From Candidatus Doudnabacteria bacterium (GTDB taxonomy: Bacteria; Patescibacteriota; Doudnabacteria; UBA920), in assembly GCA_016788665.1 (NCBI GenBank), contig JAEUSF010000002.1, forward strand, positions 6,006 through 70,005: DNA of 64,000 bases, written 5' to 3'. Numbering within the stretch: position 1 is the first letter of the stretch; the number at the start of each line of letters is the position of its first letter. Below the pieces are notes generated by a model. That model did no database searches. It saw only the letters and a program-made list of their open reading frames with translations, and was not told the origin of the DNA. Below are positions 13,127 through 33,724 of the stretch, piece by piece. Both the position numbers and the translations under genes were made by a program.

Positions 13127-13573
13127 TTATAATTTATTAAGCTCCTCTTTAAACTCTTCCAAGTCCTCAAACTTCCTGTAAACTGCCGCAAACCTTATAT
13201 AAGCAACTTTATCTACTCTCTTTATTTTTTTCATTACTATTTCCCCTATATCACCACTTTTTATCTCGCCATCTTTGGCTTTACGCTGAATTTCTAGCTC
13301 AATTCCCGAAATTAGCTTTTTTACTTCATCATCACTATGAGGCAATTTTTCAAATGCCCGCCTAATACCTCTTTCTAACTTATCTTTGCTAAACAATTCT
13401 TTTTTACCGTCTTTCTTAACAACCGTCATTCCCAAAATTTCTATTTCTTCATAAGTACTAAATCTAAAGCCACATTTTTCGCATTCCCTGCGCCTTCTTA
13501 TAGCGCTACCCTCTTCAACAGGCCTGGAGTCTAAAACCTTAGTATCTTCATTTGTACAATTTATGCATTTCAT
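13127..13573 (-). CDS. nrdR: Transcriptional repressor NrdR
   Basis: MKCINCTNEDTKVLDSRP...CEKCGFRFSTYE zinc ribbon plus ATP-cone. Confidence 0.9.
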   Translation of the reverse strand: MKCINCTNEDTKVLDSRPVEEGSAIRRRRECEKCGFRFSTYEEIEILGMTVVKKDGKKELFSKDKLERGIRRAFEKLPHSDDEVKKLISGIELEIQRKAKDGEIKSGDIGEIVMKKIKRVDKVAYIRFAAVYRKFEDLEEFKEELNKL

Positions 13574-13837: not shown

Positions 13838-15142
13838 TTACTTCATAAAGTCTGCAATCTCTTCCTCAACCAGCGGGGCAGGAAGCCCATAAGCAAGGCT
13901 ATTTAAAAGCTTTATGCTATGAACATTATCGCTCCCCTCTGCTACAGGCGGCAAACTAACGCCCGAAAACGGATTGCTGGTCTTCCCGTCTATAAGAAGC
14001 TTTATGAAAAAATTGTATTTGGGTAAGTCAACAAAATCCTGTTTCTTCAAAGGATAAAACTCTTTGGAAAGACTCTCGGCATCTTCTGCTCCAATTTCAA
14101 AGGCCATTAAAGTCCCCACGTTACCCAATACCGCTTCCTGCATTTTTACAGGCAATTGAGCAAAATACTGGTTGGTTAAATGCACACCCAGCCCGTATTT
14201 TCTTGACTCAGAAAGCATACTAGCAAAAGCATCTGTAACCATATTCTGGAACTCGTCCACATACAAATAAAAGGGGTAACGCTTCTCGGCAGGCACAGCG
14301 CTTCTTTTCAATACCGCTGCCTGTAACTTAGCCACCAAAATTAACCCCAGCATCTGCGCATTCATGTCGCCCAACTTACCCTTTGACAAATCTACCAACA
14401 AAACTTTTTCACCGTCTAAAATTTTCTCAAAACTAAAAGACGACTTCCTTTGCCCAATTATATTGCGCATAAGTCGATTGTTCAAAAAATGTCCGAACTT
14501 GGAAGTGAAGTAGTTTAGCATTTCAGATTTATGGAAGTCTGAAGTACTAGCCATTTGTTTTTGCCAGAAATCCTGCACCATCGGATCTTTTACATACTGT
14601 CTTTTTTTCAATTCAAACCTTTTATCAATAAATAGCTTTGGAATCTCTAACAAGCTACCACCCTCCGGACCGGCCATGACCGTTAAAGCAGCTGACCTAA
14701 GCCAGTGCTCAAACTGAGGACCAATAACACCAGTTTTTTCTGGGTCAAAAATTTTATAAAATATTTCTATAACTTGTGCGACTAAAAAATCCCTCTCCCT
14801 TTCTTCGGAAGCCTCAAGCAAATTCAGCCCAAAAGGATTCTCGGCATCCGAGGGGTCAAAAAGTATAACATTTTCCATATGACTTTTGGGTATTCTTTTT
14901 AAAATCCACGAAATAGACTCTCCGTGCGGATCAATAAAACATACTCCCCGATGGTTTAAAATATCCTGCAAACACATATTCTGAAAAACAGTGGATTTAC
15001 CCACCCCGGTTTTACCCAGCATATACATATGCCGAAGCCTATCCTGATCTTTTAGCAAAATAGGAGTCTCGTTCCCTCTATATATATTTGTTCCAAGTTG
15101 GACGGTCATAAGAAAATTAAAAATGTAAAATGATGAATGCAA
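13838..15142 (-). CDS. P-loop ATPase of the VirD4/TraG/TraD (T4SS coupling protein) superfamily, lacking an N-terminal membrane anchor
   Basis: Walker A LGKTGVGKST followed by FIDPHGE, and a Walker B-like YLYVDEFQN; TraG-D_C-like layout. Confidence 0.45.
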   Translation of the reverse strand: MHSSFYIFNFLMTVQLGTNIYRGNETPILLKDQDRLRHMYMLGKTGVGKSTVFQNMCLQDILNHRGVCFIDPHGESISWILKRIPKSHMENVILFDPSDAENPFGLNLLEASEERERDFLVAQVIEIFYKIFDPEKTGVIGPQFEHWLRSAALTVMAGPEGGSLLEIPKLFIDKRFELKKRQYVKDPMVQDFWQKQMASTSDFHKSEMLNYFTSKFGHFLNNRLMRNIIGQRKSSFSFEKILDGEKVLLVDLSKGKLGDMNAQMLGLILVAKLQAAVLKRSAVPAEKRYPFYLYVDEFQNMVTDAFASMLSESRKYGLGVHLTNQYFAQLPVKMQEAVLGNVGTLMAFEIGAEDAESLSKEFYPLKKQDFVDLPKYNFFIKLLIDGKTSNPFSGVSLPPVAEGSDNVHSIKLLNSLAYGLPAPLVEEEIADFMK

Positions 15143-15197
15143 AATGCAAAATTAATGCAACAATAAATAATTCTGCATTCTCAATTGTAACTTCTGC
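15121..15197. repeat. Heptad-period degenerate tandem repeats (AAAATGA/TGAATGC/AAAATGC...)
   Basis: 7-bp periodicity, direct reading. Confidence 0.5.
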
Positions 15198-15202
15198 ATT
15201 AG

Positions 15203-15511
15203 TCATCTTTCTCCAAAAAACTTCTGGTCAAAAAAGTAGGTGCTTAATACATTTGAATACCGAGCCCGCACAGCATCTTCTGCATTCTGCAAATTTAGTA
15301 ACTTTTCCAAAGTTTTCTTTTCGGTAAGCAACTTTTCCTCCACCTGATGAAAAAGCTTTAGGCTCAACTCATTTTTCAAGCTTGAAAGCTCCAGAAAGCG
15401 TTTTTTGTACAAAGCAGTTACCTGTTCTTGGTCTAAAGCACCCCTTGTGTAAACAACATGGCCTTCCCCTTTTTTATTATCGCTGACAGATTTTATTATT
15501 TCGTTGTTCAT
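15203..15511 (-). CDS. Hypothetical coiled-coil protein; overlaps the downstream Clp-like gene by 4 nt
   Basis: ORF; the overlap suggests translational coupling. Confidence 0.4.
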   Translation of the reverse strand: MNNEIIKSVSDNKKGEGHVVYTRGALDQEQVTALYKKRFLELSSLKNELSLKLFHQVEEKLLTEKKTLEKLLNLQNAEDAVRARYSNVLSTYFFDQKFFGER

Positions 15512-17166
15512 TGAAGTAATTTTTGAGTAATTAAATTTTCACAAACTTCTTCGACAAAACGCTTCACCGGCCTTGCTCCAAAACGAGGATCCGCCATTTG
15601 TTGCAGTTTGGCCTTTAAAGCCTCACGACTGACATTAAACTTTATTTTATGCTCGCTCATTCGCTTCTCGATTTTAGCAATTTCCAAAAGCGCAATATCC
15701 GTAAGGTCTTCTGCGCTCAGAGGCTTGTAAACCAGAATTGCGTCAAACCTATTTATAAATTCCATTCTCAAATACTTTAAAAGAGCGGGTATAATCTTAT
15801 GTTTTAAAAACTCTTCACTATGAACGTCTTCGCCCTGTTCCACTCCCTCTAAAATTTCTTGCACTGCCATATTGGAAGTTGCCACAATTATACCCTGGCT
15901 TAAATCAACCACCTCGCCTCGAGCGGAAGTAATGCGCCCGTCATCTAAGATCTGTAAAAAAATGTCAAAAATTTTACTATGGGCTTTTTCTATTTCATCC
16001 AACAGCAAAAGACTGTACGGATAATTTTTAAAATGGTTGGTAAGCTGCCCGCCCTCTTCATACCCTACATAGCCCGCAGGACTGCCCAAAAGCCTGGACG
16101 TGTCGTGAGGCTGGCTAAATTCCGACATATCTACCCTTAAGAAATTTTTGTCGGAGCCGTACAAATTTTCCGCCAAAATTTTCGCTGTTTCGGTTTTACC
16201 TACGCCTGACGGACCCAAAACCAAAAAGGAGCCGAGCGGCTTATGCTGAGTACGTAACCCCAACGCCGCACGAGTTATAACCGAAGTCATTTTATAAATT
16301 GCATTTTGCTGACCCACCACTTTAGACACCAAAACACTAGGTAAATTTTTAAGCATTTCTTTATCGTCGCTTCCTCTGTTTAAAGGCACCCCTGTTTTCT
16401 CTGTTGCAATTTTTTCCACCAAACTTTTTTCAATAAAGGGCGTTTGTATATTTATGCCTTTTGCCTCTGCCACACATTCGTCTAAAAGCTGAATTGCGCT
16501 TTTTGGCATTTGTCCCAAAACCGGAAAACGCTTGCAAATTTTTAAAATCATTTCCAAAACCCCTGGCTGCAAATCAACCGACTTTGAAAACTTCTCAAAA
16601 TAATTTTTCAAAATATCCAGCTGCTCAGTTTCAGACAGTCCTTCAAGTTTTAAAATCTCAAAATGGCTTAAGAAATGACTTTTGTTTGCTCTAAGCCACT
16701 CCAACTCGTCAGGCTGCATTGTTAAAACCATACTAATATCATCTTTGAAAAACAAAGGCTTGAGTACAGTATTCCAATTCTGCAAAGCCTGCGGGTTTTG
16801 GTATATCATTTCACCAAAGCTGTCCAAGACCACAATTGTGTCTTTAAGGGAATTAAAAGCCTCCTGATAGACCTGCAAAGATGTCGTGGGCAGCTGGCCA
16901 ATCTTTTGCAAAGTTCCAGAATCAAGCATGACCATTTTTTTCTTTAAAAACAAAGGACTAGGTGCGGCTATTTGAGCCCAAGCAAAAACCAACGAAGTCT
17001 TGCCTACGCCGGAAGGTGCGGACAATATGACATTGTGCTGCAAACTTCGAAGCAAAATTCGGCTTAAACGATCACTTTCTTTACCAAAACCAAAAACCTT
17101 AGGCAAACGATTAAATTTGCTTTCCAATCTCAGATCAAAATATCCAATTTTAGAAAATTCTATCAC
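15508..17166 (-). CDS. Compact two-domain AAA+ ATPase of the ClpA/ClpB/ClpC family (short D1, complete D2)
   Basis: D1 Walker A SAPSGVGKTS; D2 GPSGVGKTETAK...LLLLDEIEKAH...SNMA sensor region. Confidence 0.6.
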   Translation of the reverse strand: MIEFSKIGYFDLRLESKFNRLPKVFGFGKESDRLSRILLRSLQHNVILSAPSGVGKTSLVFAWAQIAAPSPLFLKKKMVMLDSGTLQKIGQLPTTSLQVYQEAFNSLKDTIVVLDSFGEMIYQNPQALQNWNTVLKPLFFKDDISMVLTMQPDELEWLRANKSHFLSHFEILKLEGLSETEQLDILKNYFEKFSKSVDLQPGVLEMILKICKRFPVLGQMPKSAIQLLDECVAEAKGINIQTPFIEKSLVEKIATEKTGVPLNRGSDDKEMLKNLPSVLVSKVVGQQNAIYKMTSVITRAALGLRTQHKPLGSFLVLGPSGVGKTETAKILAENLYGSDKNFLRVDMSEFSQPHDTSRLLGSPAGYVGYEEGGQLTNHFKNYPYSLLLLDEIEKAHSKIFDIFLQILDDGRITSARGEVVDLSQGIIVATSNMAVQEILEGVEQGEDVHSEEFLKHKIIPALLKYLRMEFINRFDAILVYKPLSAEDLTDIALLEIAKIEKRMSEHKIKFNVSREALKAKLQQMADPRFGARPVKRFVEEVCENLITQKLLQ

Positions 17167-17238
17167 CTTTTTTTATCCCTTCCATCTTCTTACAATTATT
17201 TTCCCAGCTCCATGTTATAAGCTCCATGTTACATGTTA

Positions 17239-19956
17239 CTACGCCACCATACTAACTGCGGCCGAGCGAGCAGAATCTACTTCTGCTATATCTGCTAAAT
17301 TACCTGCCGTATAGCCCGCTCTCCTTGCACGCCTCAAACCCTCATAAATATTTTTAAGTCGAACATTAGACTCATTTGGCTTTTTTATTTCCGTTACTTG
17401 TTTTGGACGAGGTGCATTTTCTATGTTTATAATTTTTGCTTTTGATCTTGCTGCAAAAAATGCTGGGCGAAACACCGGCTTTGACCTTGTTGCCACTCTA
17501 GGTGTGGCCATTCTCGGTTTAAAAGCCAAAACCACATTTTTAGCTGCTGAAATGTTCGGTCTAGACCTTACAGTTCTCTGAGCCGGCTTAGCTAGCACAA
17601 GCTTACTTAAAAGTTTTAATTCTTGCTTTACAGGAACTATTTTCGACTCATCCAAGCTCTCTTGTCTTGCTTCCCTTATACTTCTAACCCCTTGTCTTTG
17701 TGAATATAAATTACCGACAGGCTTCACAATCCTAGTTTGTACTTTCTGTTCTTTTTGCCTCAGCTGTCCTTCTGGCTTAGCACCCAGAGCTTTAATTGCG
17801 CGAATCTCTTGGCTCAATGTTCTTGCCTCAGGTAATTTTTTAGGCATAAAGACTTCTGTTCTAGATCCTTGTGTTCTTTCAATTCTTTCAGGCAAAATTT
17901 CTTTTGACTTACTTGCAATTTGTGACTTTAAACTCTGAAAAGGTTCAACAACCTTTGCTTCCAATTCTTCCGCCACCAAACTTGGAACTTCTACTAAATT
18001 TTGAATTGCTGATTCTATCTCAGCCAAAGCCGCATCCGGCTGCGCTTCTATAAGCCGCTCCTCTAGGCTAATACCTAGTTCAATATCTTCTACTGCTTTC
18101 TGATTTAACTCCCCGCCTTGAACTTCTTCTTGCTCCGCAGCTTCAACCTGCTTAATTTCTATAGCTTCTGCCGGAACTTCTTTGGCATCCTCTACCAAAG
18201 CAGGCTCTAGCAGCGCTCCTTCCACATCTTCTGTTGGAGCCTCGTTTTGTATTACCCGATTCTCCGCTGCCTCCATAAGGCTTATTTGGACTTCTTCTGC
18301 ATAGGACTCATTATTAACTTCACCCGCTCCCAAAACCGAAGCGTTGGCATCTTCTGTCTTCAAAACAACTCCCGACAGTACCGTTTCGGTCTTTACCAAC
18401 TCTTCTTCGCCGGAGCCTTCTGCTACTGTTTGGATTTCAATAGGCAATATATCTTTCTTTTTAACTTCCAAAGCTGCTTCAAAAATATTATTTTCCTTAG
18501 CTACCAAAACATCTTCCACATTTTCCGCACCATATTTTTTTATATCTTCTTGAGTTACCTCGTTACTACCGAAGTCACTCTCAGCGTTTAATTGCACAAC
18601 CCTCTCTTCTGATGGCAAATTTTCTGCACTTTCTTTTAGGCTTGTAGCCATATCTTCTTCTTGTGTTATAACTTCTTGTTCTGCCAAGTTATTGAAATCC
18701 GCAAACTCTGCCAAAGTAACACGTTCTGAATTCTCCCTCTCTGCCGCCTCGCCGACCAATTCCGCCTTGCCTATATCTCCATCTTCCTGATCACTTAATG
18801 TAATAACGCCTTCTGCCGTGATTTTTAATTTTGTAGGTTCTCTTAGTTTTTCTACACTTGCTTTAGAGGCCGAAACTAAAGCCTGCTCGGTTTTAATTTT
18901 TTGGAAAGCTGGTTCTGCTGGAACTAATGCTTTCACATTTTGCCTTACAGCTTTGCTACCTGGCTTAGCTTCTGCTTTTTGAACTACTTGCATTGCTGCC
19001 ACAGCTACTAACTCAACTTCCCTACCTTCCGCCAAAGTAATACCACTTTCCGCTAAATTCTCGGCTTGGCTTTTTTCTACAACTTGACCTGCTTCAAAAG
19101 CAACAGAGGGCTCAGAAGCAAACAATTCCAAAAAATTCATTTCTTCTACCGGCTTTGTCTCAACGTATATACCTGCTTTCTGCTCAGGTTCTTTAGCAGA
19201 CATAAAATTAACTACACCAAAAGCATTCTGCTCTTTTTCAACCGCTTTACTTTGGGTATTAAATAATCCTTCCCAAAAAGTATCTTTGGCAGCCGCATTT
19301 TGTTCCAAAGCCACAGAACTTGTAAAAAGAGCAGGTGTTATGTCTATAACCGTATCTCCATGCCTATGCGTTAAGTCTTCCGAATCTTCGTCGTCCATAT
19401 CTTCCATAACCTCCTCCAACAAACTTCTGACAATATCTTCTTCTGATGGCTTTGGCTTTAACTCATAGGCCTTAAAACTTATCTGCCCCTTTTCGTCCGC
19501 AAAGTAAACCTCCCTAACCAAATTCCCGGAAAACCTGTCCATATATTCTACGGTAGACCAGCCTTGGCTGAACAACTCTTCAACAATTTGCGAATGCCTA
19601 AGCCCCTCTTCACTCCCCTTAAGGCTTTCGGTCAAAGAAGCCTCCTTACCCTCAGGATCTTTATAATGCCACTCTTTAGACCCGGCCTTTAAAAAATTTC
19701 CACTAGTGGCAGAAAATGTTTCTTGCCAATCTTCACCTTTAGGCGAATTATCTGCCACGACTTGATCTAAGGAACTATACGAAAAAGCATCGGCTTTTTT
19801 TTTGCCTGTCTGATCAGGGTCGTCAACACCATAGGAAACAGGATCGCCTATATGCAAACCTGGATCCGAGTCACCAAACCTTGGGTTGTCTATTGGATTG
19901 AAAGGAATTTCTCCGGACATAAAAACCGCCTCTCCCGAGACGGCAAAAAACACCAA
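17239..19956 (-). CDS. Large acidic low-complexity protein (Glu/Ala/Val-rich) with a basic Arg/Lys-rich C-terminal tail
   Basis: 905-aa ORF with no signal peptide and a very acidic body; the final 200 aa are strongly basic. Confidence 0.5.
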   Translation of the reverse strand: MVFFAVSGEAVFMSGEIPFNPIDNPRFGDSDPGLHIGDPVSYGVDDPDQTGKKKADAFSYSSLDQVVADNSPKGEDWQETFSATSGNFLKAGSKEWHYKDPEGKEASLTESLKGSEEGLRHSQIVEELFSQGWSTVEYMDRFSGNLVREVYFADEKGQISFKAYELKPKPSEEDIVRSLLEEVMEDMDDEDSEDLTHRHGDTVIDITPALFTSSVALEQNAAAKDTFWEGLFNTQSKAVEKEQNAFGVVNFMSAKEPEQKAGIYVETKPVEEMNFLELFASEPSVAFEAGQVVEKSQAENLAESGITLAEGREVELVAVAAMQVVQKAEAKPGSKAVRQNVKALVPAEPAFQKIKTEQALVSASKASVEKLREPTKLKITAEGVITLSDQEDGDIGKAELVGEAAERENSERVTLAEFADFNNLAEQEVITQEEDMATSLKESAENLPSEERVVQLNAESDFGSNEVTQEDIKKYGAENVEDVLVAKENNIFEAALEVKKKDILPIEIQTVAEGSGEEELVKTETVLSGVVLKTEDANASVLGAGEVNNESYAEEVQISLMEAAENRVIQNEAPTEDVEGALLEPALVEDAKEVPAEAIEIKQVEAAEQEEVQGGELNQKAVEDIELGISLEERLIEAQPDAALAEIESAIQNLVEVPSLVAEELEAKVVEPFQSLKSQIASKSKEILPERIERTQGSRTEVFMPKKLPEARTLSQEIRAIKALGAKPEGQLRQKEQKVQTRIVKPVGNLYSQRQGVRSIREARQESLDESKIVPVKQELKLLSKLVLAKPAQRTVRSRPNISAAKNVVLAFKPRMATPRVATRSKPVFRPAFFAARSKAKIINIENAPRPKQVTEIKKPNESNVRLKNIYEGLRRARRAGYTAGNLADIAEVDSARSAAVSMVA

Positions 19957-20410
19957 AGGTTTTTTCCTGCTCGGGAACTTTAAACCTATTTGGCGACCAG
20001 ACTTATACCCACTAAATCCACGAGATCAATTTTAGATCTGCGTATCAGCGAATAATCACTGTTGCGGCACAGTTTCGGAATTTAACCACTATTATTTGTA
20101 ATTTTATATTCAGCTTTCTTCTGCGTACCCCGCCAGCAGGCGAATCCGCGAGATTCTTGCGTTCACAAATTTATAAACGAACCAACGCAAGGCAACCGAA
20201 TACATTTTACTTACACCTCAGTAGTAGTTTTCACCGAATTCCCCAAATAAGCTTTTTTATTTTTAACGTATGAGTATTATATACCCTAAACCCCGTCTGT
20301 CAATTTTTTATGAATTCGCCCATACCCAACCTCAGCACACTTAACAACAATTTTTTAATATCTAACTTAATACTTTTATACTATTCGAACGAATAAAATT
20401 AAAGGTAAGC

Positions 20411-20454
20411 AAAAAACCCAAAATAAAACTCCCGGGGGCACAGCCGGGAGTTTT
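20411..20454 (-). terminator. Rho-independent terminator (CTCCCGGGGGCACAGCCGGGAG plus U-run)
   Basis: GC stem followed on the minus strand by TTTTATTTTGGGTTTTT; just after the stop of the 20482-21048 gene. Confidence 0.7.
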
Positions 20455-20481
20455 AAATTTATTTCGCAATTCTTATTTACA

Positions 20482-21317: not shown

Positions 21318-22511
21318 TTATTTCATTTTCTTTCGAATGAACGCAGGGATCTCCAATTCATCTTCAGAGTCACCACTTGTTGCACTTGCCGCGGGTTCAG
21401 TTGGCGGTGTTGCCTGTACCGGACGAGGGTTAAACATTGGCTTCCTTACTTCCAACGGAGGAGGGGGCAAATTTACCGGCGCTGTTTTTGCTTCAGGCAT
21501 AATATGCCGTTTTTCTTCCTGACTCAAAATTGCAATCGGTCTTTTACTTGACTCGTCAAACCCGGTAGCAATAACTGTAATCCTAATTTCATCGCCCATG
21601 TCTTCGTCTATAACGGTACCGAATTTAACTTTCGCATCTGGGTCTATACTCTTGGTTATAACTTTGGCAGCTTCGTCTATTTCAAACATACCCAAATTGG
21701 AACCACCTGTTATGTTAAACAGCACACCTTTAGCTCCGTCTATAGCAAGCTCGAGCAAAGGAGAATTTATGGCCAAGCGCGCGGCTTCCTGAGCTCTGTT
21801 CTCCCCGCTTGCTCTGCCAATTCCCATAAGAGCTGTACCAGCGTCTTGCATTATACTTCGCACGTCGGCAAAATCTGCATTTACAATTCCGTGTGTGGTA
21901 ATTAAATCTGAAATACCTGCGATACCCTGTCTCAATACCTCGTCGACTGTTTTAAAAGCATCTACCAAAGAAGTCTTTTTGTCTATTATCTGAAGTATGC
22001 GGTCGTTCTGAATAGAAATTATTGCATCTACTTTGTCCTTTAAGTTGTCATAGCCCACCTCTGCAACTTCCTTTCTCTTAGACCCTTCAAAAGTAAAAGG
22101 CTTGGTAACCACAGCTACGGTTAAAATTCCTTTATTCTTTGCGAGCTCGGCTACTATTGGAGACGCGCCAGTACCGGTTCCCCCGCCAAGTCCGCAGGTA
22201 ATAAAAACCATATCGGCATTGTCTATAATGTCTTCCAAATCTTCGACGCTTTCTTCTGCAGCCTGACGTCCTAATTCTGGGTTCATTCCGCTACCCAAAC
22301 CTTTAGTAGCGGTTTTACCAATATGAACCTTTTTGTCTGCCTGGTTGTTATGCAAAGCCTGAGAGTCTGTGTTTATAGCCACAAACTCTACGCCTTTTAT
22401 ACCAAGTTCGGACATGCGATTTACAGCATTGGTACCGGACCCGCCAATTCCTAAAACTTTAATTCTGGCAAAACTTTCAATTTTTGGTTTAACTTCCATT
22501 GTTTTTTTCAT
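21318..22511 (-). CDS. ftsZ: Cell division GTPase FtsZ
   Basis: [13 protein letters not shown]...[15 protein letters not shown] tubulin signature. Confidence 0.95.
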
Positions 22512-22784: not shown

Positions 22785-23069
22785 TTAGCTATTTTGAATG
22801 CGGCTTTTTAGCTCGGCTTGTTCCAAAGCTTCGCCAGCGTTAGCGGCTACTTTCTTTAAAGCCTTTAACTCCTCTATGGCCTCGTCCAGAAAAGCGAGCT
22901 CAATTTTATTAAACGTGTTTTCACTCTGCACATGTAGCATGGTTAAATCAAGCAAAATTTTGCCTGCTTCCTTTTCAGAAACATCGGAACTCAAAAAAAC
23001 TTGCAAAACACTTTTTGCCTTTTCTATGTCCCCGTCTTCTAGAGCCTGTTTTAAATCTTGAATTTGCAT
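22785..23069 (-). CDS. Small acidic coiled-coil protein, hypothetical
   Basis: ORF followed by the hairpin terminator AAAGGGAG...CTCCCTTT (22735-22775). Confidence 0.45.
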   Translation of the reverse strand: MQIQDLKQALEDGDIEKAKSVLQVFLSSDVSEKEAGKILLDLTMLHVQSENTFNKIELAFLDEAIEELKALKKVAANAGEALEQAELKSRIQNS

Positions 23070-23070
23070 T

Positions 23071-25176
23071 TTATAATTTTGCCTTATAGGCTTTTAAAAC
23101 TATCGCCAGGGCTTTTTCACCCGGCGAGCCCTTTTTGTAAACATCTATTAAACCTTCCAAAACTTCATTTTTTACTTCAAGATACCTAGGACTCGTCGCC
23201 GTATCCCCCAACGCTCTTTCTATAGACATCATTTGGAGCTTGAGTTTTTCTATAGTCGTACTGCCTTTTTTAAACTCTTTAAAACCTTTCACCATTTCTC
23301 TGGTAGCTACAATCATTACAAGTTCTTTGGCGTCCTTTTCTAACTGGTCATATTCCCTACCCCCTCCATAGTCCTCTCCTGCGTCAAAGTACTCTACTCC
23401 GGAACCGTCACTTTCCTCAAAAGCCGAATCTAAACTTTGCCAAGCTTTTAAAGCCTTTTCTAAAGAAGCATCCGGCTCGGTTAAAACTTTTAGGTTTTGC
23501 CTAAATTCCTTTCTAACTTCTGCTATAACCTGCCTGGTCTCTTCTGCTTCGTTAAATAAATACCTAGTTAAACTTTTGAGCTTTAGCTCCATAGCAGCTT
23601 TTTCCTCAGACGCATTTTGCAACTTTTCAAGCTTCCTTTCCAAGCCCGCTACTTTACCTAGGCTTTCAGAAAATACTGCCTCCGCCTTTTCCATTGCAAC
23701 TTTATGTCTTTGGTCAGGACTCTCTTTCCTAAAACTCTTCCATGCGCTTACAGGACCCTCGTTCCTAAAACTCTTCCATGCTCTTGCCAGCACGTTTTTA
23801 CCAGAAAACTCTTTGGACTGCCTGTATAGCCTTGCGCCCTTCTGAACACTGTTATTTCTATACTCAGTTTCTATTCTATTTCCCACTTTACTTACATTTT
23901 TATACAAGTCCTGAAGACTCCCAAAACCAATGTCGTCCCTATTCGCCAAATCGTTTAAATCTTTAATGCGGCCAATATCGGCCGGGTTCCTTAACACTGT
24001 TGAAATTTCCGCCTTTAGTCTATATGCGTCCTCCAGAGAATTCCAAACGCTTCGGGGACCACTAACTCGAGCAACACCACTAAACCCCCTAAGCGACAAT
24101 TTGCGCACGTCGTCCAATTTTTGATTCAGCTTAGTAACCTCCTCACCACTTTCAGGGTCGGCATAATCAACCTTACTTAACTGTTCGCTAATACCTCTTC
24201 TGTACTCACCCAGCAAATCTTCGGACATGCCTCCGGCCGCATCAATCGCCTCGTCAAAATTTTTCATTATTCCCGCCGCAGCTTCTAAACTGAATTTTTT
24301 TCCGGTATCTAGCTTAGCGACCGCTTCGACTTTATTTTTTGCTGCCTGCAAATAGTTCTGCAGTTCATCTGTGTTCATTCCTGCTTCTGCAAACACCTCG
24401 GCTCTTTTTTCCACCACTTCCAAATACCGCCCATATTGTTCGGCATTTTCCTGTGCCGTTTTTACAGACTCCAAACCAGCTTTTTGCATTTCTGCTTCTA
24501 CTATTTTAAATTCGGCAGAAAATTGCCCCAATGCCTTTTCACCCCTCACTATGGCATTGAAGGCATTATTTTCGGCTTCCAGAGTAGTCTTTCTTTCTTC
24601 CGCGCTTCCTAAACTTTCTTTTGAGTCTATAAGTTTACTTTCCAAACTATCTTCAGGCTCCATGGCTGAAAGCTCTTCCTGCTTAGCTTTTATTGCCAAA
24701 GGCAGCTTTTCATAATCTTCCAAATCCTGATTTATTATTTTAAGCGCCTCTACTCCTTCGTTTTGGACTCTTTCCATTAAGCCCTGCTCCAAACCTTTTA
24801 GCTGTTCAGGCTTTAGCTTTACGCTTGTGTCCTTTAAAATTTTTGCTTGTAAAATTTCCCCAAGCTTTTTACTTGCTTTAGGTATTTCTTTAAAAGCCTC
24901 AAAGCGTTCCTTTACTAATTTTTCATCTGCCTCGTCCATATCTAAAACCTCGGCATCTGGAAAACCAGCCAAAAACTCCGAAAAGCCAGGCGTATTTAGC
25001 GCGGTCTCCATAGAGAAAGCCCCGCTCTCTACAGCAGCGTGCTCAGTTTCGGAAGAATGATTTGTTTTTGTTTCAGCTTTATGGCCATGACCCTTAGACT
25101 GCCTAAACGAAGTTAAGTCTTGGCCAAACTTTGAACCGGTAACCGGCTCGCCATTTATTGCAGTTATATTTACCAT
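23071..25176 (-). CDS. Large coiled-coil protein, hypothetical; contains an internal tandem duplication (AWKSFRNEGPVS/AWKSFRKESP)
   Basis: 701-aa ORF with heptad-rich K/E/L composition; stop abuts the start of the next gene. Confidence 0.5.
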   Translation of the reverse strand: MVNITAINGEPVTGSKFGQDLTSFRQSKGHGHKAETKTNHSSETEHAAVESGAFSMETALNTPGFSEFLAGFPDAEVLDMDEADEKLVKERFEAFKEIPKASKKLGEILQAKILKDTSVKLKPEQLKGLEQGLMERVQNEGVEALKIINQDLEDYEKLPLAIKAKQEELSAMEPEDSLESKLIDSKESLGSAEERKTTLEAENNAFNAIVRGEKALGQFSAEFKIVEAEMQKAGLESVKTAQENAEQYGRYLEVVEKRAEVFAEAGMNTDELQNYLQAAKNKVEAVAKLDTGKKFSLEAAAGIMKNFDEAIDAAGGMSEDLLGEYRRGISEQLSKVDYADPESGEEVTKLNQKLDDVRKLSLRGFSGVARVSGPRSVWNSLEDAYRLKAEISTVLRNPADIGRIKDLNDLANRDDIGFGSLQDLYKNVSKVGNRIETEYRNNSVQKGARLYRQSKEFSGKNVLARAWKSFRNEGPVSAWKSFRKESPDQRHKVAMEKAEAVFSESLGKVAGLERKLEKLQNASEEKAAMELKLKSLTRYLFNEAEETRQVIAEVRKEFRQNLKVLTEPDASLEKALKAWQSLDSAFEESDGSGVEYFDAGEDYGGGREYDQLEKDAKELVMIVATREMVKGFKEFKKGSTTIEKLKLQMMSIERALGDTATSPRYLEVKNEVLEGLIDVYKKGSPGEKALAIVLKAYKAKL

Positions 25177-25278: not shown

Positions 25279-26799
25279 ATGAAACAAAAAATATATAGTT
25301 CTGTACTAACCTTACTGTTCTTTTTTAATATCTTTGGCATCCTAGGCCAACCAGCAGCGGCACAAACTTTTTGCCAATTTAGCATAACAAGCTTTGAGGC
25401 TCAAAACACTTCGGCCACCGACTATAGCACAGTAAACAAAAACAGCTCGGTAAAAGTTTTTGTTAAAAGCAGCTTTGACCAAGTTTGTGTTAAACCATAC
25501 ACAGTCGTTTACACCTTCCAACTAAAAACCAAGTCTGGCTACACAACAGTACAAACAAAAGAATTTACCCCTCCCATAAATACTTCAACCCATGACTTTA
25601 ATTTCATTTACGACCTAAGTTCTTTTTCGGGCTGGAATAACTTATCGGATAATGCGAAACTTGAATACAGCCTTACTGCTTCTGGAAAGTCAGGAGCTGT
25701 ATCCAGACCCTTTGCAAATACTAATACCTGGGGCAAATTTTTAAATGTTACCGGATCTAGCACCGGTGGGACAACTCCAAGCGGTACCGGCAATCTTTCT
25801 ATGCAGCTTGCTGTAGACAAAGCCGAAGCATTAACCGGCTCTACTTTATATGTAGATATTAAAGTGAACGGAACTGTTACAGACCCGCTAGCGATACAAA
25901 AAAAATATAAAATATTAACCTATGTAAACACAAAATGGGTTGGACAGTTCAGGGACCTTACCTCCACACAACTGACCCAATCAAAAACCCAAGAAATAGT
26001 AGTGAATACAGAAAACGGATTTAAAGCTGGTGCAAATACCATACGGGTAGAAGCATACAACCAAGATACGAACACTCTAATTGCTCAAGCAAGTTTAAAT
26101 ATTTCTATGCCAGGAGCAAGCTCTAACTCTTCTCCTACTGTTAGTGTATCCCCAACAAAATCTTCTTATGCATTAGGTGAGACTATTACTTTGCAGTTTC
26201 AAAATCTTCCCAGTGGAAGAGTTGGAGTAATTACAATAAACAATGCAGTAGACAAAACTCTGCCCCAACAAAATAACTTCCCTATCGAACTTTCGACAAC
26301 TAACGGCTTTAACGATAAAAGCAATAACAACATTTTAATTAAAATTTCCGACAGCTCAGGTGCGCCGGTAACTTTAGACAAAAGTTCGCTAACTATTCCT
26401 ATTGGCATACAAGGTGCGCAGACCAATTCATCAAGTACACCAGGTACAACCGGAGGAATTCCAACTCTTAGTGAAACTTTAGTTAACCCTCTGCCCTGGG
26501 ACGGACTTTTAGAAACTTTCTTAGGTATAACCAAAGGCTTGTTAGCCGGCTTAGCTATTTGGGCAGTTATAGCAATTATAATAGCTGGCTTTAGAATGGT
26601 TCTCGCAGCTGGCAACGAAGAAGCTATAGCTACTGCCAAAAGGTCTATAACTTGGGCTATTTTAGGTTTAGTTGTAGCCATACTTTCTTTTAGCATAGTG
26701 GCCATAGTCCAAAACTTACTCAACGTAAAAATAGAGCAGTACGACCCGCGTCCAGTTACTGGTTACGAACAAACTCAAGAACCAAAAAACTTAAGTTAA
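25279..26799 (+). CDS. Secreted Ser/Thr-rich surface protein with a C-terminal TrbC/VirB2-pilin-like two-helix hydrophobic hairpin
   Basis: Signal peptide MKQKIYSSVLTLLFFFNIFGILGQPAAAQ; C-terminus GLLAGLAIWAVIAIIIAGFRMVLAAGNEEAIATAKRSITWAILGLVVAILSF. Confidence 0.5.
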   Translation: MKQKIYSSVLTLLFFFNIFGILGQPAAAQTFCQFSITSFEAQNTSATDYSTVNKNSSVKVFVKSSFDQVCVKPYTVVYTFQLKTKSGYTTVQTKEFTPPINTSTHDFNFIYDLSSFSGWNNLSDNAKLEYSLTASGKSGAVSRPFANTNTWGKFLNVTGSSTGGTTPSGTGNLSMQLAVDKAEALTGSTLYVDIKVNGTVTDPLAIQKKYKILTYVNTKWVGQFRDLTSTQLTQSKTQEIVVNTENGFKAGANTIRVEAYNQDTNTLIAQASLNISMPGASSNSSPTVSVSPTKSSYALGETITLQFQNLPSGRVGVITINNAVDKTLPQQNNFPIELSTTNGFNDKSNNNILIKISDSSGAPVTLDKSSLTIPIGIQGAQTNSSSTPGTTGGIPTLSETLVNPLPWDGLLETFLGITKGLLAGLAIWAVIAIIIAGFRMVLAAGNEEAIATAKRSITWAILGLVVAILSFSIVAIVQNLLNVKIEQYDPRPVTGYEQTQEPKNLS

Positions 26800-26880: not shown

Positions 26881-26987
26881 TTGAATGGGGGCAAAGCGAA
26901 GTCTGGTTAGACCGCTTTGCCCGAGTTAAGGTGCGCGCGCATTGCTCGTGGGTGCACGAGCCTGCGCCGCCTTCATAGTCAAGTACG

Positions 26988-27656
26988 TCACGGGAGCTTA
27001 CCCTTGGGCCCAAAGGCGAGCCCGTGAGCGTTGCCTTCGGGATAGAACAACACATCGCCCCGAAGCCCATACTCCCCCCAAGCCTTTTTATTTGCGATGT
27101 TGTGTCCGTCCGCAAACATAGGCTTAAGGTTTGGGTCATGCCCTTTCAGGTAGACCCTTTTACCGTCTGGTCCTACGAGGTAAAGCTTTACCTCGTAGTC
27201 GTGCAGCGAGTTCCGGTACGACCGAGGCAGTACCAGAAGAATGGGCTTGTTCGGCTCGCATTTGTCGAGCTGTGTGAGATACCGAATTTCCCCCTCTATC
27301 TGCTCCGCCGGGCACACGTCCCGCAGCGCCAGCTTGGGATCGCCAAACTTAGCTTTGTCGGCCTCCAGCCTCAGGGTTTCTGCCGCGTAGGTTTCGACGG
27401 CCTTTTGCGAGTTGCCTTTTAAGATTTCACTTTTCACACTCTTGGTCCGCTCGGTAAAGCGATCCTGCAGAGCGCTGTTCACGTCCCGCTGGCGGTTTTG
27501 ATGCGCCGGCACCATAGGCACCTGCGAACGAAAATCCCTCCAGACCGTATAGAGACAGTAACCTATTAGCAATGCAATGATAGTTCCACCGATGACAGGC
27601 AACTTATCCTCAAGCCTATCCCAAAACCCTTTCTTATGAACCACTTCCGTCGACAT
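26988..27656 (-). CDS. Island protein E: single-pass membrane protein with C-terminal globular domain, unknown function
   Basis: Start ATG overlaps the stop of the upstream gene (TAATG); TM helix LPVIGGTIIALLIGYCLYTVW; high-GC codon usage. Confidence 0.5.
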   Translation of the reverse strand: MSTEVVHKKGFWDRLEDKLPVIGGTIIALLIGYCLYTVWRDFRSQVPMVPAHQNRQRDVNSALQDRFTERTKSVKSEILKGNSQKAVETYAAETLRLEADKAKFGDPKLALRDVCPAEQIEGEIRYLTQLDKCEPNKPILLVLPRSYRNSLHDYEVKLYLVGPDGKRVYLKGHDPNLKPMFADGHNIANKKAWGEYGLRGDVLFYPEGNAHGLAFGPKGKLP

Positions 27657-28633
27657 TAGTGTCCTCCTCCATGTCCGTGCGAAGTCTTTTTCCCGAGCCG
27701 TCCCAGCATTAGGATGACTAAAATTGCAATTACCGCATACCCGATGTTCAACGGGTCGTCCCAGCTGATGTACCAATCGGGCAACGACAAGCTGAAGTTC
27801 CAGTTTTGGCTAATCATGCCTCGGATCGAGTAAAACCCGACCGCAGCCATGCTGGCCACAATCAGAACCTTGGCGAACCAGTTGTCCGCCCAAGATAGCG
27901 CGACCAAGCTCACAACGACTGTAAGCAGTAGCCACACTATGTGTGGCATCCCAAGTGGTGCCGGTAAAGGCCCTTTCGGCGCTGGTGGCACCTCAGGTCC
28001 TTTTACCATAGTCATCAAGTCTGCGTGAACCCCGTCGGCGGTTTCAAGCCGCGGACGAAGTTTTGCGAGCTCGGTGCGGAGCTGTTTTTCGGTTAGCCTT
28101 CCTGCAGCGTACTGCTGGTAAAGCTTTAACGTTTCCGCTCCGACCTTGTCACCGAACTGCTCTGCAAGGAGTTCGTTGGTAACAAACAGCTTCTTCCGAG
28201 CCGGCAGGTTCGCCGGTTCGGCTTGTGCCGCGGCATTGAGCAATGCCTTTTCTTTGGCGTTGCTTGCCGCGCTTCCAAGCGCGTCGCTCTGTTGGTACAG
28301 AGCAGTAACTATGGCCTTGTCCACTTCGAGCCACAGCTGTGGCACGAGCGAGACAAGCCAGAATAACATAACCTTGGTTGCCCACGACGCCCACGCGTCG
28401 TGGTTGTTACTCAAGACTCGCGCCAGCATGGAAAGCGCGAGCGCGAGCGGCAAACCCTGCTGGACGGCAACAACCGCCCAAGCGCTCTGCGTGTGTCCTA
28501 CGAAGTAGGCACACGCGACCAGCATGAGCAGCAGCACGAGCCACCACTCTTTCAGAATCTGCATAGGGTTAGCACCGGTCCCGGTGGGAGCCGGCGCGGG
28601 GGTCGTTGCGGTCGTGTGAGCGTGTTCGCTCAT
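27656..28633 (-). CDS. Island protein D: polytopic membrane protein, unknown function
   Basis: At least six hydrophobic helices; ends GHGGGH; GC-rich. Confidence 0.5.
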   Translation of the reverse strand: MSEHAHTTATTPAPAPTGTGANPMQILKEWWLVLLLMLVACAYFVGHTQSAWAVVAVQQGLPLALALSMLARVLSNNHDAWASWATKVMLFWLVSLVPQLWLEVDKAIVTALYQQSDALGSAASNAKEKALLNAAAQAEPANLPARKKLFVTNELLAEQFGDKVGAETLKLYQQYAAGRLTEKQLRTELAKLRPRLETADGVHADLMTMVKGPEVPPAPKGPLPAPLGMPHIVWLLLTVVVSLVALSWADNWFAKVLIVASMAAVGFYSIRGMISQNWNFSLSLPDWYISWDDPLNIGYAVIAILVILMLGRLGKKTSHGHGGGH

Positions 28634-28642
28634 GCAAGCCTC

Positions 28643-30145
28643 CTAAAAAAGTGGTTTCAAAAACGGGAAGTACCGCGTTAACACATGGCCGACCAGGTTC
28701 ATAGCTACCTCAACCATGATGTCCTTCTCAATAAACTCCCGCCACGATTCCCGGCCAAGCGGCGCAGGCCTCGCGTGTGGCTTGTGTTCCGCGTGTTCTT
28801 CAACTGGGGGTTTCTCTCCTACGTTTTCACCGTTTTTCTTACGGTATACGACGTAAACTCCTTCATATTTTCGCCGTTCAGCGACAAGCTCTACGGCTTC
28901 CCGCTTGTGGGCGAACCTTCCCTTTGCGGCCGCACTGGCTTGCCCTACCTCATCGGCAAGACAAACCGGAACCCAAAAAATCCAGAACAATATCCAGTAA
29001 AGGAGCCAGAAGCCCACGCGGGCTAAAGGCCGTCCTTCATGTATGGCGCGAAATGGGATAACAATAGCCACCGCTTCGGAAAGCAGCGACGGTTTACCCG
29101 TCTTTTTAGCTTCGGGTTTTAGAGCCGGCAAGCTGTCCGGTTCCTCCGAAAAGGACCCGAGTTGGCTTTCCAGTGCCTTGCGGCGAGCATCCTGCTTTTC
29201 GCGAGGCGATGCCGAATTCTCGACTACCGTCTCTTCCTGCGTGCCGCGAGGGTTAAAGAGCAAGCTCAGCAACCCATACGACATGTAGAGAGAACTCCAA
29301 ACCCCGAGCCAGAAAATCAGGCCTAGGAGTTTGTTGTTGTTCCGCCGCCACTTTTCACCACACCAAGCATAAAAACCCTGCTCTGCATGGTGACCGTGAT
29401 GGCCAGCATGCCCTGCGTGTCCACCATGCTCATGAGCATGGCCATGGAGAACAGCCGCTACGTTCAGGTCGAGCATGTCTGCCCGGTGAACGTATACCGT
29501 TTCCTCGCCGTTAACCTGGAACCTGGAACTAAAAGTTCCTTGTTCCGAGGTTGCAATTCGGGTGCCGCTAAAAACAACGTCGGCCTTACAGCCAACACCG
29601 TCTTCAAACGTCTGCCCTTCCAGGCTCCATGCGTCTTCGGTCCCCGACACGGGGACAAAGCGAGTGTAGAGCGCGTAAACCGGGTCGGAGGACTTTGCAG
29701 CCTTAGGCTTTTCAGCCGTTGGCGGCACTTGTCCGGCCGCAGAACCTGCCGGTTGTTCTTCCGGCAAATCTGCAACGAACTCATCGGCGCCGAGCTTGAC
29801 GCCAACTTTTTTTAGCGCCTCTTTTTTATAGGCGCTTAAGTCAATGCCCGCTACCACCCCTTCTCCGTCTACCACTGAGAGAGTATAAACCTCTCCCCCA
29901 GTCTTGGACGGGTCTGGAATGGAATAAGCGCAAGGATCCGATGCCGGACCAAAGCACAAGGGGAACTCATGCGTCTGTCCCTGTCCGTTCAGGTAATACT
30001 TCACCCGAACGATTAGGGAAGACATTGTTCCCGAAACAAACAACCTTAGGTCCTTTTTTGGACCCTGATGCTGTTGCTGCTGCGGGTTTCCGCCTCCTCC
30101 TCCACCACCACCACCTGTGCGGTTGCGGTTTTGATTATTTCTCAT
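28643..30145 (-). CDS. Island protein C: membrane protein with poly-Gly/Gln N-terminus and a His-rich metal-binding-like segment (HGHAHEHGGHAGHAGHHGHH)
   Basis: Internal Met with GGAGGA SD 9 nt upstream; TM helices after the His-rich segment. Confidence 0.5.
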   Translation of the reverse strand: MRNNQNRNRTGGGGGGGGGNPQQQQHQGPKKDLRLFVSGTMSSLIVRVKYYLNGQGQTHEFPLCFGPASDPCAYSIPDPSKTGGEVYTLSVVDGEGVVAGIDLSAYKKEALKKVGVKLGADEFVADLPEEQPAGSAAGQVPPTAEKPKAAKSSDPVYALYTRFVPVSGTEDAWSLEGQTFEDGVGCKADVVFSGTRIATSEQGTFSSRFQVNGEETVYVHRADMLDLNVAAVLHGHAHEHGGHAGHAGHHGHHAEQGFYAWCGEKWRRNNNKLLGLIFWLGVWSSLYMSYGLLSLLFNPRGTQEETVVENSASPREKQDARRKALESQLGSFSEEPDSLPALKPEAKKTGKPSLLSEAVAIVIPFRAIHEGRPLARVGFWLLYWILFWIFWVPVCLADEVGQASAAAKGRFAHKREAVELVAERRKYEGVYVVYRKKNGENVGEKPPVEEHAEHKPHARPAPLGRESWREFIEKDIMVEVAMNLVGHVLTRYFPFLKPLF

Positions 30146-30563
30146 ACTTGACTTTCCTCCTACGGAAATGTCAAAGATCTCTTCTTGAGCGGTAAGTAAA
30201 CCGGTCTCAAGGATTCCACAAAAGTGGAATATCACCTTACGGTGAGTAAAACCTTGTAAAAGTGGTGCCCAATGTAAAACCCCGCTTTTTAGGGCGGGGC
30301 AAAACATTAGAATTTACAAGGTTTTGCCCACCACAAGCAAAAACATAAAAATATTCAATTATTTAATTTTTTAAACTAGCTAATTGCTGTAAATAAAATA
30401 ATTTTACTTACACCACCCAACTAATTCATGTATTGATTTTTCACTTACTACTTACTACGAGCTACCAGCTACTAGCTAGAAAATGGGGGGAAAGTTTATA
30501 AGCTCTCCCCCGCCTTTGTTATGTGTCTCCCGCCCTGTCCGTAGACAGTTTGGGAGAAAAGCG

Positions 30564-32165: not shown

Positions 32166-32732
32166 GGACCACTCCTTGTGAACTTGAACAGAATTCAGAG
32201 GGGACGCCTCTGGCTTTGGGACAAATGGCGTCCTCTGCAAAAAAGTTTCAAGCACGCAATTTTACAGCCGACACTTAGTCAAATGTAAAGTGCGCTAAAA
32301 TAAAAACCTTTTTGCAAAGGACCACCACCTTCCACCTAACATCCGCAAAATCTGCAGCTATCTGCGTATCTGCGAATTGTAACGCTTTTAATCCTCCTAA
32401 TAAATTTATTTAATGTACAAGCCCGAATAGAAATTCCAGGCTCATATCTTTAGCTAAAACAAGCCAATTAGCTAAAAATATGAACCAAGCTATATATAGT
32501 ATTAAATTGACATATAATTATACTAGATTTGACCTAAAAAGTCAATATTTAGTCTGTTTATTGCTCATATTTAAAGCAAAAAAAATTTTCACTCCCTATT
32601 TTATAGCCGAAAACAGGCCATGGATGCATATACACCCATGGCCAAAATGCCTTAAAAGGCTAGTTGTACAAGGAGAGTGGCTTTTGCCTTTTTTGAGTAG
32701 AAAGGCATGTTCGCACGCAGATACTAAAATCT

Positions 32733-33590
32733 TTAGGTTTCGGGAGGGGGTTCTTCTGGAGATACTACGTTTCTTGTGGGCTTGTTTGCCCTAACGGTCT
32801 CCTCCCCACTATACCCGCTTGGAGGCTGTTTGCGCCGCGCCTTTTTATACCAAGGCCCAAACTCTTCTTCACCGTACCCGGTCTCGTTAAACTGCCTATA
32901 CTTGTAAGTCCACTGAAGCCTGCCGCTCCGCCAAAGCCAAACTATCATTCCAATCGTGCTCAGCAAGAGCAAAATTCCCAAAAGCCAAACGGTATTTCCA
33001 CGGCTCCACCGCACATTTTCAAACGGCTTCTTCCAGAGAGGCGGACGCTTTGGGGCAATAGGTTTTTTTACCACACCCGAACCCGCCAAAGACTCCAGCC
33101 GGGAAATTTCGGTCCTCTGGGCTATAACCTCTTTGCCCAAAGTACCTAGCTGTGCTCTTAAAGAAGCAACTTCTGCTTCCAAAGCATCAACCTTCCGCTC
33201 AAGCCCCCGCATTTTAAGCCCGCCGTCTTCTTCCGGCTTAACCAAGCCCGCCGTTCTGCCTCTTATGTTTCTTCCAGAAGCAGAAGAATGGCGCGCAAAG
33301 GCACCAAGCTCCTTCAAAAGCAGTTTGGCGGTTAAGCTCTGGCTTGGCTTTGCGTCTTTGGGCAAAAGAAAAAACTTGTTATGCAGTTTGCGGTAAAGTT
33401 TCGGGTCAAGCACACGCCCGTTTTCATCCTGCAAGGCATAAAGCAAATAAACGCTCTTGCCCGCCCGATTTAAATCCGCCATGGGTCCGTACTTGCTTGC
33501 TGCTATCCGCTCGACGTTGTGAGCAAAAACCTGAAACACGCACACCAAAAGTCCCAACACTGCACACCGCACTGTCCTTGTAACTAACAC
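32733..33590 (-). CDS. Island protein A: signal-peptide protein with coiled-coil and C-proximal TM helix (GTG start)
   Basis: AGGAGG SD 9 nt before GTG; MLVTRTVRCAVLGLLVCVFQVFA signal peptide. Confidence 0.5.
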   Translation of the reverse strand: MLVTRTVRCAVLGLLVCVFQVFAHNVERIAASKYGPMADLNRAGKSVYLLYALQDENGRVLDPKLYRKLHNKFFLLPKDAKPSQSLTAKLLLKELGAFARHSSASGRNIRGRTAGLVKPEEDGGLKMRGLERKVDALEAEVASLRAQLGTLGKEVIAQRTEISRLESLAGSGVVKKPIAPKRPPLWKKPFENVRWSRGNTVWLLGILLLLSTIGMIVWLWRSGRLQWTYKYRQFNETGYGEEEFGPWYKKARRKQPPSGYSGEETVRANKPTRNVVSPEEPPPET

Positions 33591-33724
33591 TTTTACTTGC
33601 CTCCTTAGAATTTTTAAAGCCTCATTTTTTGCGGCCTTAGGCTTTGACGCATTATTTAAAATGCGTCAAAACCAAAAACAGCCAACTTTCAAATTAGAGA
33701 GTAAGCCCAAAACCTTGAATATAA

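Follow-up and report, generated by a model that had tools for sequence, protein, structure and literature searches.

We analyzed a 64-kb window (the whole stretch of 64,000 nucleotides) of a Candidatus Doudnabacteria metagenome-assembled genome, which is located on a 151-kb contig. The window carries chromosomal housekeeping genes (NrdR, a ribonucleotide reductase (RNR), FtsZ, FtsA, ComEC, EngA, TopA, and DnaK) and, among them, a minus-strand operon of four genes. In the order of transcription, these genes encode a large acidic protein, a compact Clp-like double-AAA+ ATPase, a small helical protein, and a soluble P-loop ATPase resembling type IV coupling proteins (T4CPs). Judged from sequence, the operon is under the control of a cobalamin-class riboswitch with a terminator, and this holds across loci of the candidate phyla radiation (CPR). 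An earlier note on this DNA had described four consecutive co-directional genes with minimal spacing and had missed the riboswitch. All four open reading frames (ORFs) are present, and the 4-nt overlap between the Clp-like and small genes (ATGA, 15508–15511) was borne out; the other gaps are 72 nt between the acidic and Clp-like genes and 93 nt between the small and ATPase genes (60 nt if a TTG start is used). Two starts had to be moved. The ATPase, previously given as 434 aa, probably begins at ATG 15109 and not at TTG 15142, which matches NCBI record MBL8029844 (423 aa). The acidic protein, previously 905 aa, is assigned by its leader to ATG 19920 (893 aa) and not to TTG 19956, because this TTG falls within the terminator hairpin.

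Three distant genomes (L001, L003, and L004) showed the same four-gene order between different flanks. When one genome per species was scanned, 80 loci were obtained; the operon loci reported here count the window and three earlier loci. In 68 of 83 related CPR loci, the Clp-like gene was directly upstream of the ATPase gene with a small ORF between them, and a gene for an acidic protein (500–1,134 aa) was located farther upstream. These genomes are of the Doudna-, Magasanik-, Pace-, Nomura-, Kaiser-, and Parcubacteria types. Neighbour clustering of the 68 loci showed that the operon genes alone are conserved and that the flanks differ. As the same order recurs with unrelated flanks, the arrangement is not due to chance, and the conservation that the earlier note had proposed to check was found in 68 loci, with an ATPase of the TrwB type. 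Median identity to the window proteins was 66% for the ATPase, 43% for the Clp-like protein (D2 54%, D1 32%), 28% for the small protein, and 21% for the acidic protein. A prophage or defence-island origin of the operon was considered and rejected on the basis of PADLOC and PHROGs scans.

Shortly after the preceding gene's terminator (20424–20455), and ~350 nt upstream of the acidic gene, a sigma-70-type promoter was identified. The leader that follows it folded with a minimum free energy (MFE) of −111 kcal/mol (z = −5.2 against shuffled sequences). Against the Rfam adenosylcobalamin (AdoCbl) model, the window leader scored 21.4 bits, under the gathering score of 50, because it carries insertions. 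At the same position, directly upstream of the acidic gene, matches at gathering level to the Rfam cobalamin clan (CL00101) were obtained in 14 of the 21 loci tested, and the window leader aligned with the Rfam-validated riboswitches of its relatives. It shares with them the invariant B12-box core, an AAGUC.GGUCGC element, and a UCCCGAG...CUCGGGAGAGG platform; ACUGUGCCGCAAC.GU is invariant in this alignment.

Furthermore, a covariance model (R1) was built from four leader copies. On the window leader, itself one of the four training sequences, R1 scored 75.8 bits (E = 8e-18). Of the 53 loci whose sequence extends into the upstream region, 43 gave a match to R1, in each case on the operon strand, with a median distance of 56 nt to the gene start; in 40 of these 43, a terminator hairpin with a T-run followed the aptamer. 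Compensatory changes were observed in 15 of 20 base pairs; because the alignment was fitted to the model, it is biased toward the structure. The covariation score was 0.485 compared with 0.141 in shuffles. The window riboswitch appears to contain an insertion of ~125 nt (20109–20243, minus strand) that forms a separate long hairpin in the MFE structure, and a 'GGGGAAUUCGGUGAAAAC' element is found at 20244–20227, far upstream of the B12 box; this arrangement may be a partial duplication. The riboswitch is immediately preceded, in 13 of the 68 loci, by a co-directional PaaX_M-like gene of ~165 aa (e.g., L031 4725–5216 and L003 4070–4591), which may encode an additional regulator. Coordinates of the operon features are collected in Table 1.

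Table 1. Features of the operon and its leader in the 64-kb window
Feature	Position	Strand	Basis or remark
Sigma-70-type promoter, TTGACA-16 nt-TATAAT	20276..20303	-	12/12 consensus match
Cobalamin (AdoCbl-type) riboswitch leader	19921..20269	-	Fold, alignment with relatives, covariance model R1
Candidate P1	20243-20252 with 19985-19993	-	MFE structure
Covariance-model aptamer match	19978-20109	-	R1
B12-box core	20057-20073	-	
Anti-terminator candidate UCCCGAG	19970-19976	-	
Terminator hairpin	19926-19944; T-run (T5) 19921-19925	-	Ends right at ATG of acidic gene
Acidic protein, 893 aa	17239..19920	-	ORF list, family alignment
Acidic protein, N-domain (~aa 45-160)	19441-19788	-	
Acidic protein, acidic low-aromatic region (aa 161-680)	17881-19440	-	
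Acidic protein, basic region (aa 681-880)	17281-17880	-	
Acidic protein, C-terminal tail RSAAVSMVA	17242-17268	-	
Compact ClpB-type double-AAA+ ATPase, 552 aa	15508..17166	-	AAA_2, ClpB_D2-small, ClpB/ClpA alignments
Small helical protein, 102 aa	15203..15511	-	AF2, ORF at same place in relatives
Soluble TrwB/VirD4-fold (T4CP-like) P-loop ATPase, 423 aa	13838..15109	-	Pfam, AF2, Foldseek

The window also encodes an AdoCbl-dependent class II RNR (TIGR02504, 582 bits; cutoff, 400), the only evident B12 enzyme in it, and a CobA/BtuR-type adenosyltransferase; the organism relies on scavenged B12. S. epibionticum, from which the short-form operon is absent, has class I and class III RNRs only and no corrinoid adenosyltransferase. 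Known cobalamin regulons (btuB/btuFCD, metE, and alternative RNRs) have the same CL00101 aptamer followed by an intrinsic terminator. However, the genes controlled here are neither transporters, biosynthetic enzymes, nor isozymes, and no ATPase machine of this kind was found in the literature on cobalamin-riboswitch regulons that we searched.

The Clp-like protein aligned to ClpA residues 176–720 and to D1 and D2 of ClpB, beginning at the equivalent of ClpA 176 or ClpB 164, and matched AAA_2 (1.8e-51) and ClpB_D2-small (4e-13) in Pfam. Its earlier description as a shortened ClpA/B/C-type unfoldase of 552 aa agreed with these alignments: neither an N-domain nor a middle (M) domain was detected in the ClpA/ClpB alignments or by Pfam, and there is no space for an M-domain between the end of the AAA lid at 254 and the start of D2 at ~309. 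Two further features had been overlooked, a degenerate D1 and an absent ClpP-docking loop. Walker B of D1 has no catalytic Glu (VVLDSF in the window, IDDF in the consensus of 66 family members), and the D1 pore Tyr is missing, as KYRGEF of ClpB aligns to QKIGQL, which holds across the 66 members. D2 is canonical, with Walker A/B, a GYVGY pore loop, sensor motifs (sensor 2), and D2-small, and its motifs are at least 90% conserved in the same set. At the ClpP-docking site, EQG takes the place of ClpC VGF in the alignment, the loop being 4 residues shorter and of the same length as in ClpB, and the family consensus shows no hydrophobic tripeptide (VGF/IGF/IGL). Because the docking loop is absent and D1 is degenerate, we infer that this protein, annotated as 'Clp protease subunit', is not a Clp protease subunit but a protease-independent protein of the unfoldase type, with D2 as its one motor ring. 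It shares the D1–D2 two-ring architecture and canonical D2 of class I Hsp100/Clp proteins (ClpB, ClpV, and N-domain-less ClpA) and differs from them in the lost domains, tripeptide, and D1 residues. In at least one relative (L001), it is a second Clp-type gene, with a full-length Clp_N-containing Clp ATPase encoded ≤10 kb from the operon.

For the P-loop ATPase, the Pfam matches TrwB_AAD_bind, TraG-D_C, and DUF87 were weak yet above their cut-offs. The AF2 model (pLDDT 87.6, pTM 0.88) showed a P-loop core interrupted by an all-alpha insertion at ~aa 100–232, composed of helices only and placed between strands 81–84 and 236–240. A Foldseek search of the PDB with this model returned TrwBdeltaN70 as the top match (E = 5e-12, TM ~0.6 over the full length), followed by HerA, Cag-beta, VirB4, and DotL. 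GKTGVGKS (Walker A) and YVDEF (Walker B) were invariant in 30 sequences. No hydrophobic or transmembrane (TM) segment was found, and the N-terminus forms a beta-strand in the model. By its predicted structure, the fold is thus of the TrwB/VirD4 (T4CP) type, and the structural comparison with TrwB and HerA relatives suggested in the earlier note, which had called the protein a soluble VirD4/TraG-like ATPase without a membrane anchor, confirmed that description.

Like the T4CPs TrwB, VirD4, Cag-beta, and DotL, the ATPase has an all-alpha domain inserted into a P-loop domain of the FtsK/HerA type. Unlike them, it has no TM domain, no neighbouring VirB4 or mating-pair formation (MPF) genes, and no relaxase, and it is encoded with a Clp-like ATPase under a B12 riboswitch. 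The all-alpha domain is variable among T4CPs but nearly invariant in this family. The ATPase is only ~14% identical to TrwB, yet 55–74% identical across 67 operon loci; as this level is kept across classes, it points to vertical inheritance under strong constraint. More than 7,000 ATPase clusters exist, and the 120 best-scoring, from many CPR lineages, are 65–75% identical. T4CP homologues have been counted in 2,918 of 3,035 Patescibacteria genomes (~96%, short and long forms pooled), and according to the literature 148 of 5,713 CPR T4CP homologues are near virB4.

A long paralogue of the ATPase (~850 aa) was found in ~15 loci. It has an N-terminal TM helix and an extra region of ~380 aa, and its ATPase domain is 55% identical to the short form. 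In these ~15 loci, it never adjoined a Clp-like gene, and its cluster has no acidic gene; R1 gave a single marginal match there (L084, E about 1, opposite strand). Its N-terminal extension proved unrelated to the Clp-like, small, or acidic proteins. The cluster (L067–L084, e.g., L070 8780–16209) encodes the TM-anchored T4CP-like protein, a ~170-aa protein, a Sigma70_r4+HARE-HTH protein of ~345 aa, and a second ATPase of ~1,040 aa, which was VirB4-like at first sight and turned out to be another T4CP-like protein. S. epibionticum has long forms only, namely SEML1_0142, which was scored as essential by Tn-seq, and SEML1_0293, which is non-essential and adjoins a sigma-like gene. By length and the adjoining sigma/HARE-HTH gene, the long-paralogue cluster appears to correspond to SEML1_0293/0294, and possibly also to the essential SEML1_0142.

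The small protein was predicted as a single long alpha-helix at residues 28–99 (AF2 on a single sequence, pLDDT 83), which upheld its identification as a 102-aa coiled-coil protein. An ORF was present at its position in about 60 loci, and part of the family keeps a C-terminal YF(E/D)QKF motif; the small protein had no match in Pfam, NCBIfam, PADLOC, or PHROGs. The acidic protein had been called extremely acidic, with a basic C-terminal tail. The first term is true of its aromatic-poor central 520 aa (net −71, pI 4.2) and too strong for the whole protein (pI 4.7, 18% D+E), and the last ~210 aa are basic as described (pI 11.3). No match to this protein was found in Pfam, NCBIfam, PADLOC, PHROGs, or the PDB, and a search of its gene for tandem repeats found none. 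Homologues of its N-domain (~110 aa) were nearly missed in two word-index searches, because the family is too divergent for a word index, and were recovered by an exhaustive HMMER scan, in which the domain was always N-terminal in proteins of 600–900 aa. The N-domain profile had no convincing relative in Pfam or the PDB.

The C-terminus of the acidic protein is conserved. Among 51 acidic proteins of ≥380 aa from the loci, 34 ended in Ala-Ala and 42 in Ala, and in an independent set from the exhaustive scan an Ala-Ala end was found in 20 of 24 (ELAA, SLAA, ALAA, KIAA, and RLAA). Only 9 of 736 other genes of the same loci (1.2%) encode such an end. The sequences counted are phylogenetically related, so that binomial P-values overstate their independence. 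The tail consensus is L-N-G-I-T-L/M-R/K-R-A-A, and the motif persists although the remainder of the protein has diverged to about 20–21% identity. From general knowledge, the tail resembles an ssrA-type C-terminal degron. Like the ssrA and MuA degrons read by ClpX and ClpA, it appears to place a hydrophobic residue before Ala-Ala-COOH, often after basic residues (...GITLRRAA, ELAA, SLAA, and KIAA); in contrast to ssrA, it is genetically encoded on one protein, beside a putative unfoldase that has no protease partner. The one CPR tmRNA tag examined ends ...PALA: the L029 tmRNA gene (16278–16670, minus strand; Rfam 104.9 bits) encodes, by ARAGORN, the tag ANLYTRMKTAMANAFAPSFVPALA, which ends in Leu-Ala, and the acidic protein of that genome ends ...EVAFA. 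The proposal in the earlier note that the acidic protein is cargo of the machine gains support from the family alignments, because the Ala-Ala tail is conserved on an otherwise fast-evolving protein.

Taken together, we tentatively favour, at somewhat less than an even chance, the interpretation that the operon encodes a cytoplasmic threading machine induced by B12 starvation, with the acidic protein as its dedicated client. AdoCbl would switch the operon off and B12 scarcity would switch it on, such that the machine is made when corrinoid for the class II RNR runs short. Both ATPases would form hexameric rings, and the small protein may act as a helical adaptor between them and the acidic client. 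The D2 pore of the Clp-like ring would grip the client by its ssrA-like C-terminal tail and thread or remodel it rather than degrade it, whereas the all-alpha domain of the T4CP-like ring would be a receptor, or that ring a second motor. Because the operon is under B12 control, the output of the machine would most likely serve corrinoid or deoxynucleotide acquisition in starvation, possibly at the host interface. A more specific form of this scheme appears unlikely in its entirety to us: a soluble two-motor machine in which a T4CP-type ring is stacked on or coupled with a ClpB-type ring via the long-helix adaptor and threads a C-terminally tagged polyanionic protein. In it, cobalamin would serve Patescibacteria as a proxy for host supply, and the machine would be used only in host-B12 starvation; it might, for example, carry the acidic protein to or through the envelope so that corrinoids or deoxynucleotides are gained from the host.

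Several observations weigh against the threading machine. The window riboswitch, with its ~125-nt insertion, stays under the Rfam gathering score and takes its presumed function from orthologues, and repression by AdoCbl (an OFF-switch) is borrowed from the canonical design. The link between the operon and class II RNR compares one genome with one other. No B12 gene recurs as a neighbour of the operon, and nothing recognisably corrinoid-related was seen in the four operon proteins. The tail of the acidic protein in the window (...SAAVSMVA) ends S-M-V-A and not A-A, and an Ala-Ala end could merely be a ClpXP degron that gives fast turnover.

Among the alternatives, we regard export via a type IV secretion system (T4SS) as improbable, although it can draw on several facts. 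Here, the T4CP-like ATPase would recruit the acidic protein by a C-terminal signal, the Clp-like protein would unfold it, and a T4SS encoded elsewhere would export it as an effector in host- or B12-starvation. The T4CP fold with its all-alpha domain suits this role, as does the basic region followed by a conserved C-terminus in the acidic protein. Unfolding is required of T4SS substrates, whose signals are C-terminal and often basic (PMC12857230). A precedent for a T4CP likewise without a TM anchor is pIP501 TraJ, which is anchored by TraI and belongs to the monoderm class that CPR T4SSs resemble (PMC12102498), and CPR T4SS clusters mostly have no T4CP nearby. Moreover, 5 kb away in the window, the secreted 506-aa protein at 25279–26799 (plus strand), which the earlier note had drawn into a T4SS theme, does have a T4SS_pilin domain at its C-terminus (PF18895, 29.8 bits, which exceeds the cut-off) together with a weak Mbov_0395 pilin-like match. 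However, neither VirB4, VirB6, relaxase, nor MPF genes were detected by Pfam in the 64-kb window, and neighbour clustering of the 68 loci rejected conserved linkage to a T4SS or pilin gene: no T4SS gene recurred next to the operon, and the pilin-like gene was not found beside it in other genomes. The T4SS connection proposed earlier is therefore not supported. The operon encodes no membrane component, the membrane-anchored paralogue belongs to another cluster, in which Clp-like and acidic genes are lacking, and B12 control would need further assumptions.

That B12 riboswitches commonly control B12-independent substitutes of B12 enzymes, including alternative RNRs, speaks for a role in DNA handling as a deoxynucleotide backup. 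When AdoCbl is lacking and the class II RNR fails, an ATPase of the FtsK/HerA superfamily would translocate imported or recycled DNA, the basic part of the acidic protein would bind DNA, and its acidic part would be a nucleic-acid mimic or regulator. The structural search ranked the DNA translocases TrwB and HerA highest, NrdJ, NrdR, ComEC, and DprA are all encoded in the window, and the acidic protein has a bipartite acidic/basic charge. We nevertheless doubt this explanation and rate it as quite unlikely, given that the operon contains no nuclease, recognisable DNA-binding domain, or competence gene, that a Clp-type protein unfoldase is left unexplained, and that ComEC was dispensable in S. 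epibionticum according to the review PMC12857230. Ordinary proteostasis, with the Clp-like protein as a minimal ClpB/ClpA-type chaperone and functionally unrelated neighbours, agrees with the strong D2 match to ClpB, ClpC, and ClpA, but is very hard to reconcile with the strict linkage in 68 loci despite unrelated flanks, the 4-nt overlap, and the common riboswitch-controlled promoter. The full-length Clp ATPase of L001 also counts against it, as do the missing N-domain, M-domain, and ClpP loop, which known functions need. Least credible is a role in defence against phages, in a system that rests on HerA-like and ClpB-like ATPases. PADLOC gave weak matches (mad8 at 1e-12 and HerA models for the ATPase; PDC-M37B and DolB for D2 of the Clp-like protein), but these are partial, covering the P-loop and D2 alone. 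The near-universal occurrence of T4CP homologues cited above and the identity of the ATPase across classes are unlike patchy defence islands, no nuclease or other effector domain is present, and a metabolite riboswitch controls the operon.

The cytoplasmic parts of type VII secretion offer another comparison: the FtsK-like ATPase EccC, the AAA+ protein EccA, and substrates of ~100 aa with a C-terminal tail signal. The parts list here may be seen as similar, with an FtsK/HerA-superfamily ATPase, an AAA+ protein, a small helical protein, and a putative C-terminally signalled substrate. However, homology is confined to the P-loop, no WXG motif occurs in the single-helix small protein, and there are no membrane components. 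For the orphan T4CPs of Patescibacteria, mostly far from a T4SS, the field has gone no further than the suggestion that they may have been 'exapted for other functions' (PMC12102498); in their count of orphan T4CPs, Quinonero-Coronel et al. (2025) proposed exaptation and left Clp-like partners unmentioned. Our searches for Patescibacteria or Parcubacteria together with ClpB, T4CP, or cobalamin riboswitch yielded nothing relevant, and within the literature searched the operon and its riboswitch control are undescribed. With this operon, the short soluble orphan T4CPs gain three conserved partners, a candidate tailed client, and a controlling ligand, B12. If the threading machine is real, it would be the first link of corrinoid status to an ATP-driven protein machine and would put the T4CP fold to a new use, outside secretion systems; B12 would be indicated as a commodity of key importance where these ultra-small bacteria depend on their hosts.

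Some observations concern the surroundings of the operon. The ftsZ and nrdR genes are next to each other in S. epibionticum (SEML1_0175/0176). In the window, ftsZ (21318–22511) is separated from nrdR-nrdJ (nrdR region 13127–13573) by the riboswitch operon and a gene for a 188-aa membrane protein. The gap between the ATPase gene and nrdR is 265 nt, and no terminator was predicted there; transcription could therefore read through into nrdR-nrdJ. Two co-directional ORFs of 94 aa and 701 aa (22785–25176, minus strand) between ftsZ and the pilin-like gene encode coiled-coil-rich, acidic proteins; neither matched a family or had a relative near the operon elsewhere, and the 188-, 94-, and 701-aa ORFs gave no match in the Pfam, NCBIfam, PADLOC, or PHROGs scans. 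Between the pilin-like gene and ftsA lies a GC-rich island (26900–33600; GC 0.48–0.56 compared with 0.39 elsewhere), because of which ftsA (33768–35015) and ftsZ are ~11 kb apart. Its ORFs encode membrane, coiled-coil, Gly/Gln-rich, and His-rich proteins without a Pfam or PHROG match, and the island is possibly a horizontally acquired segment. In L003, a group I intron match (Rfam 72.8 bits) was observed at 16227–16532 (plus strand), ~6 kb downstream of the operon.

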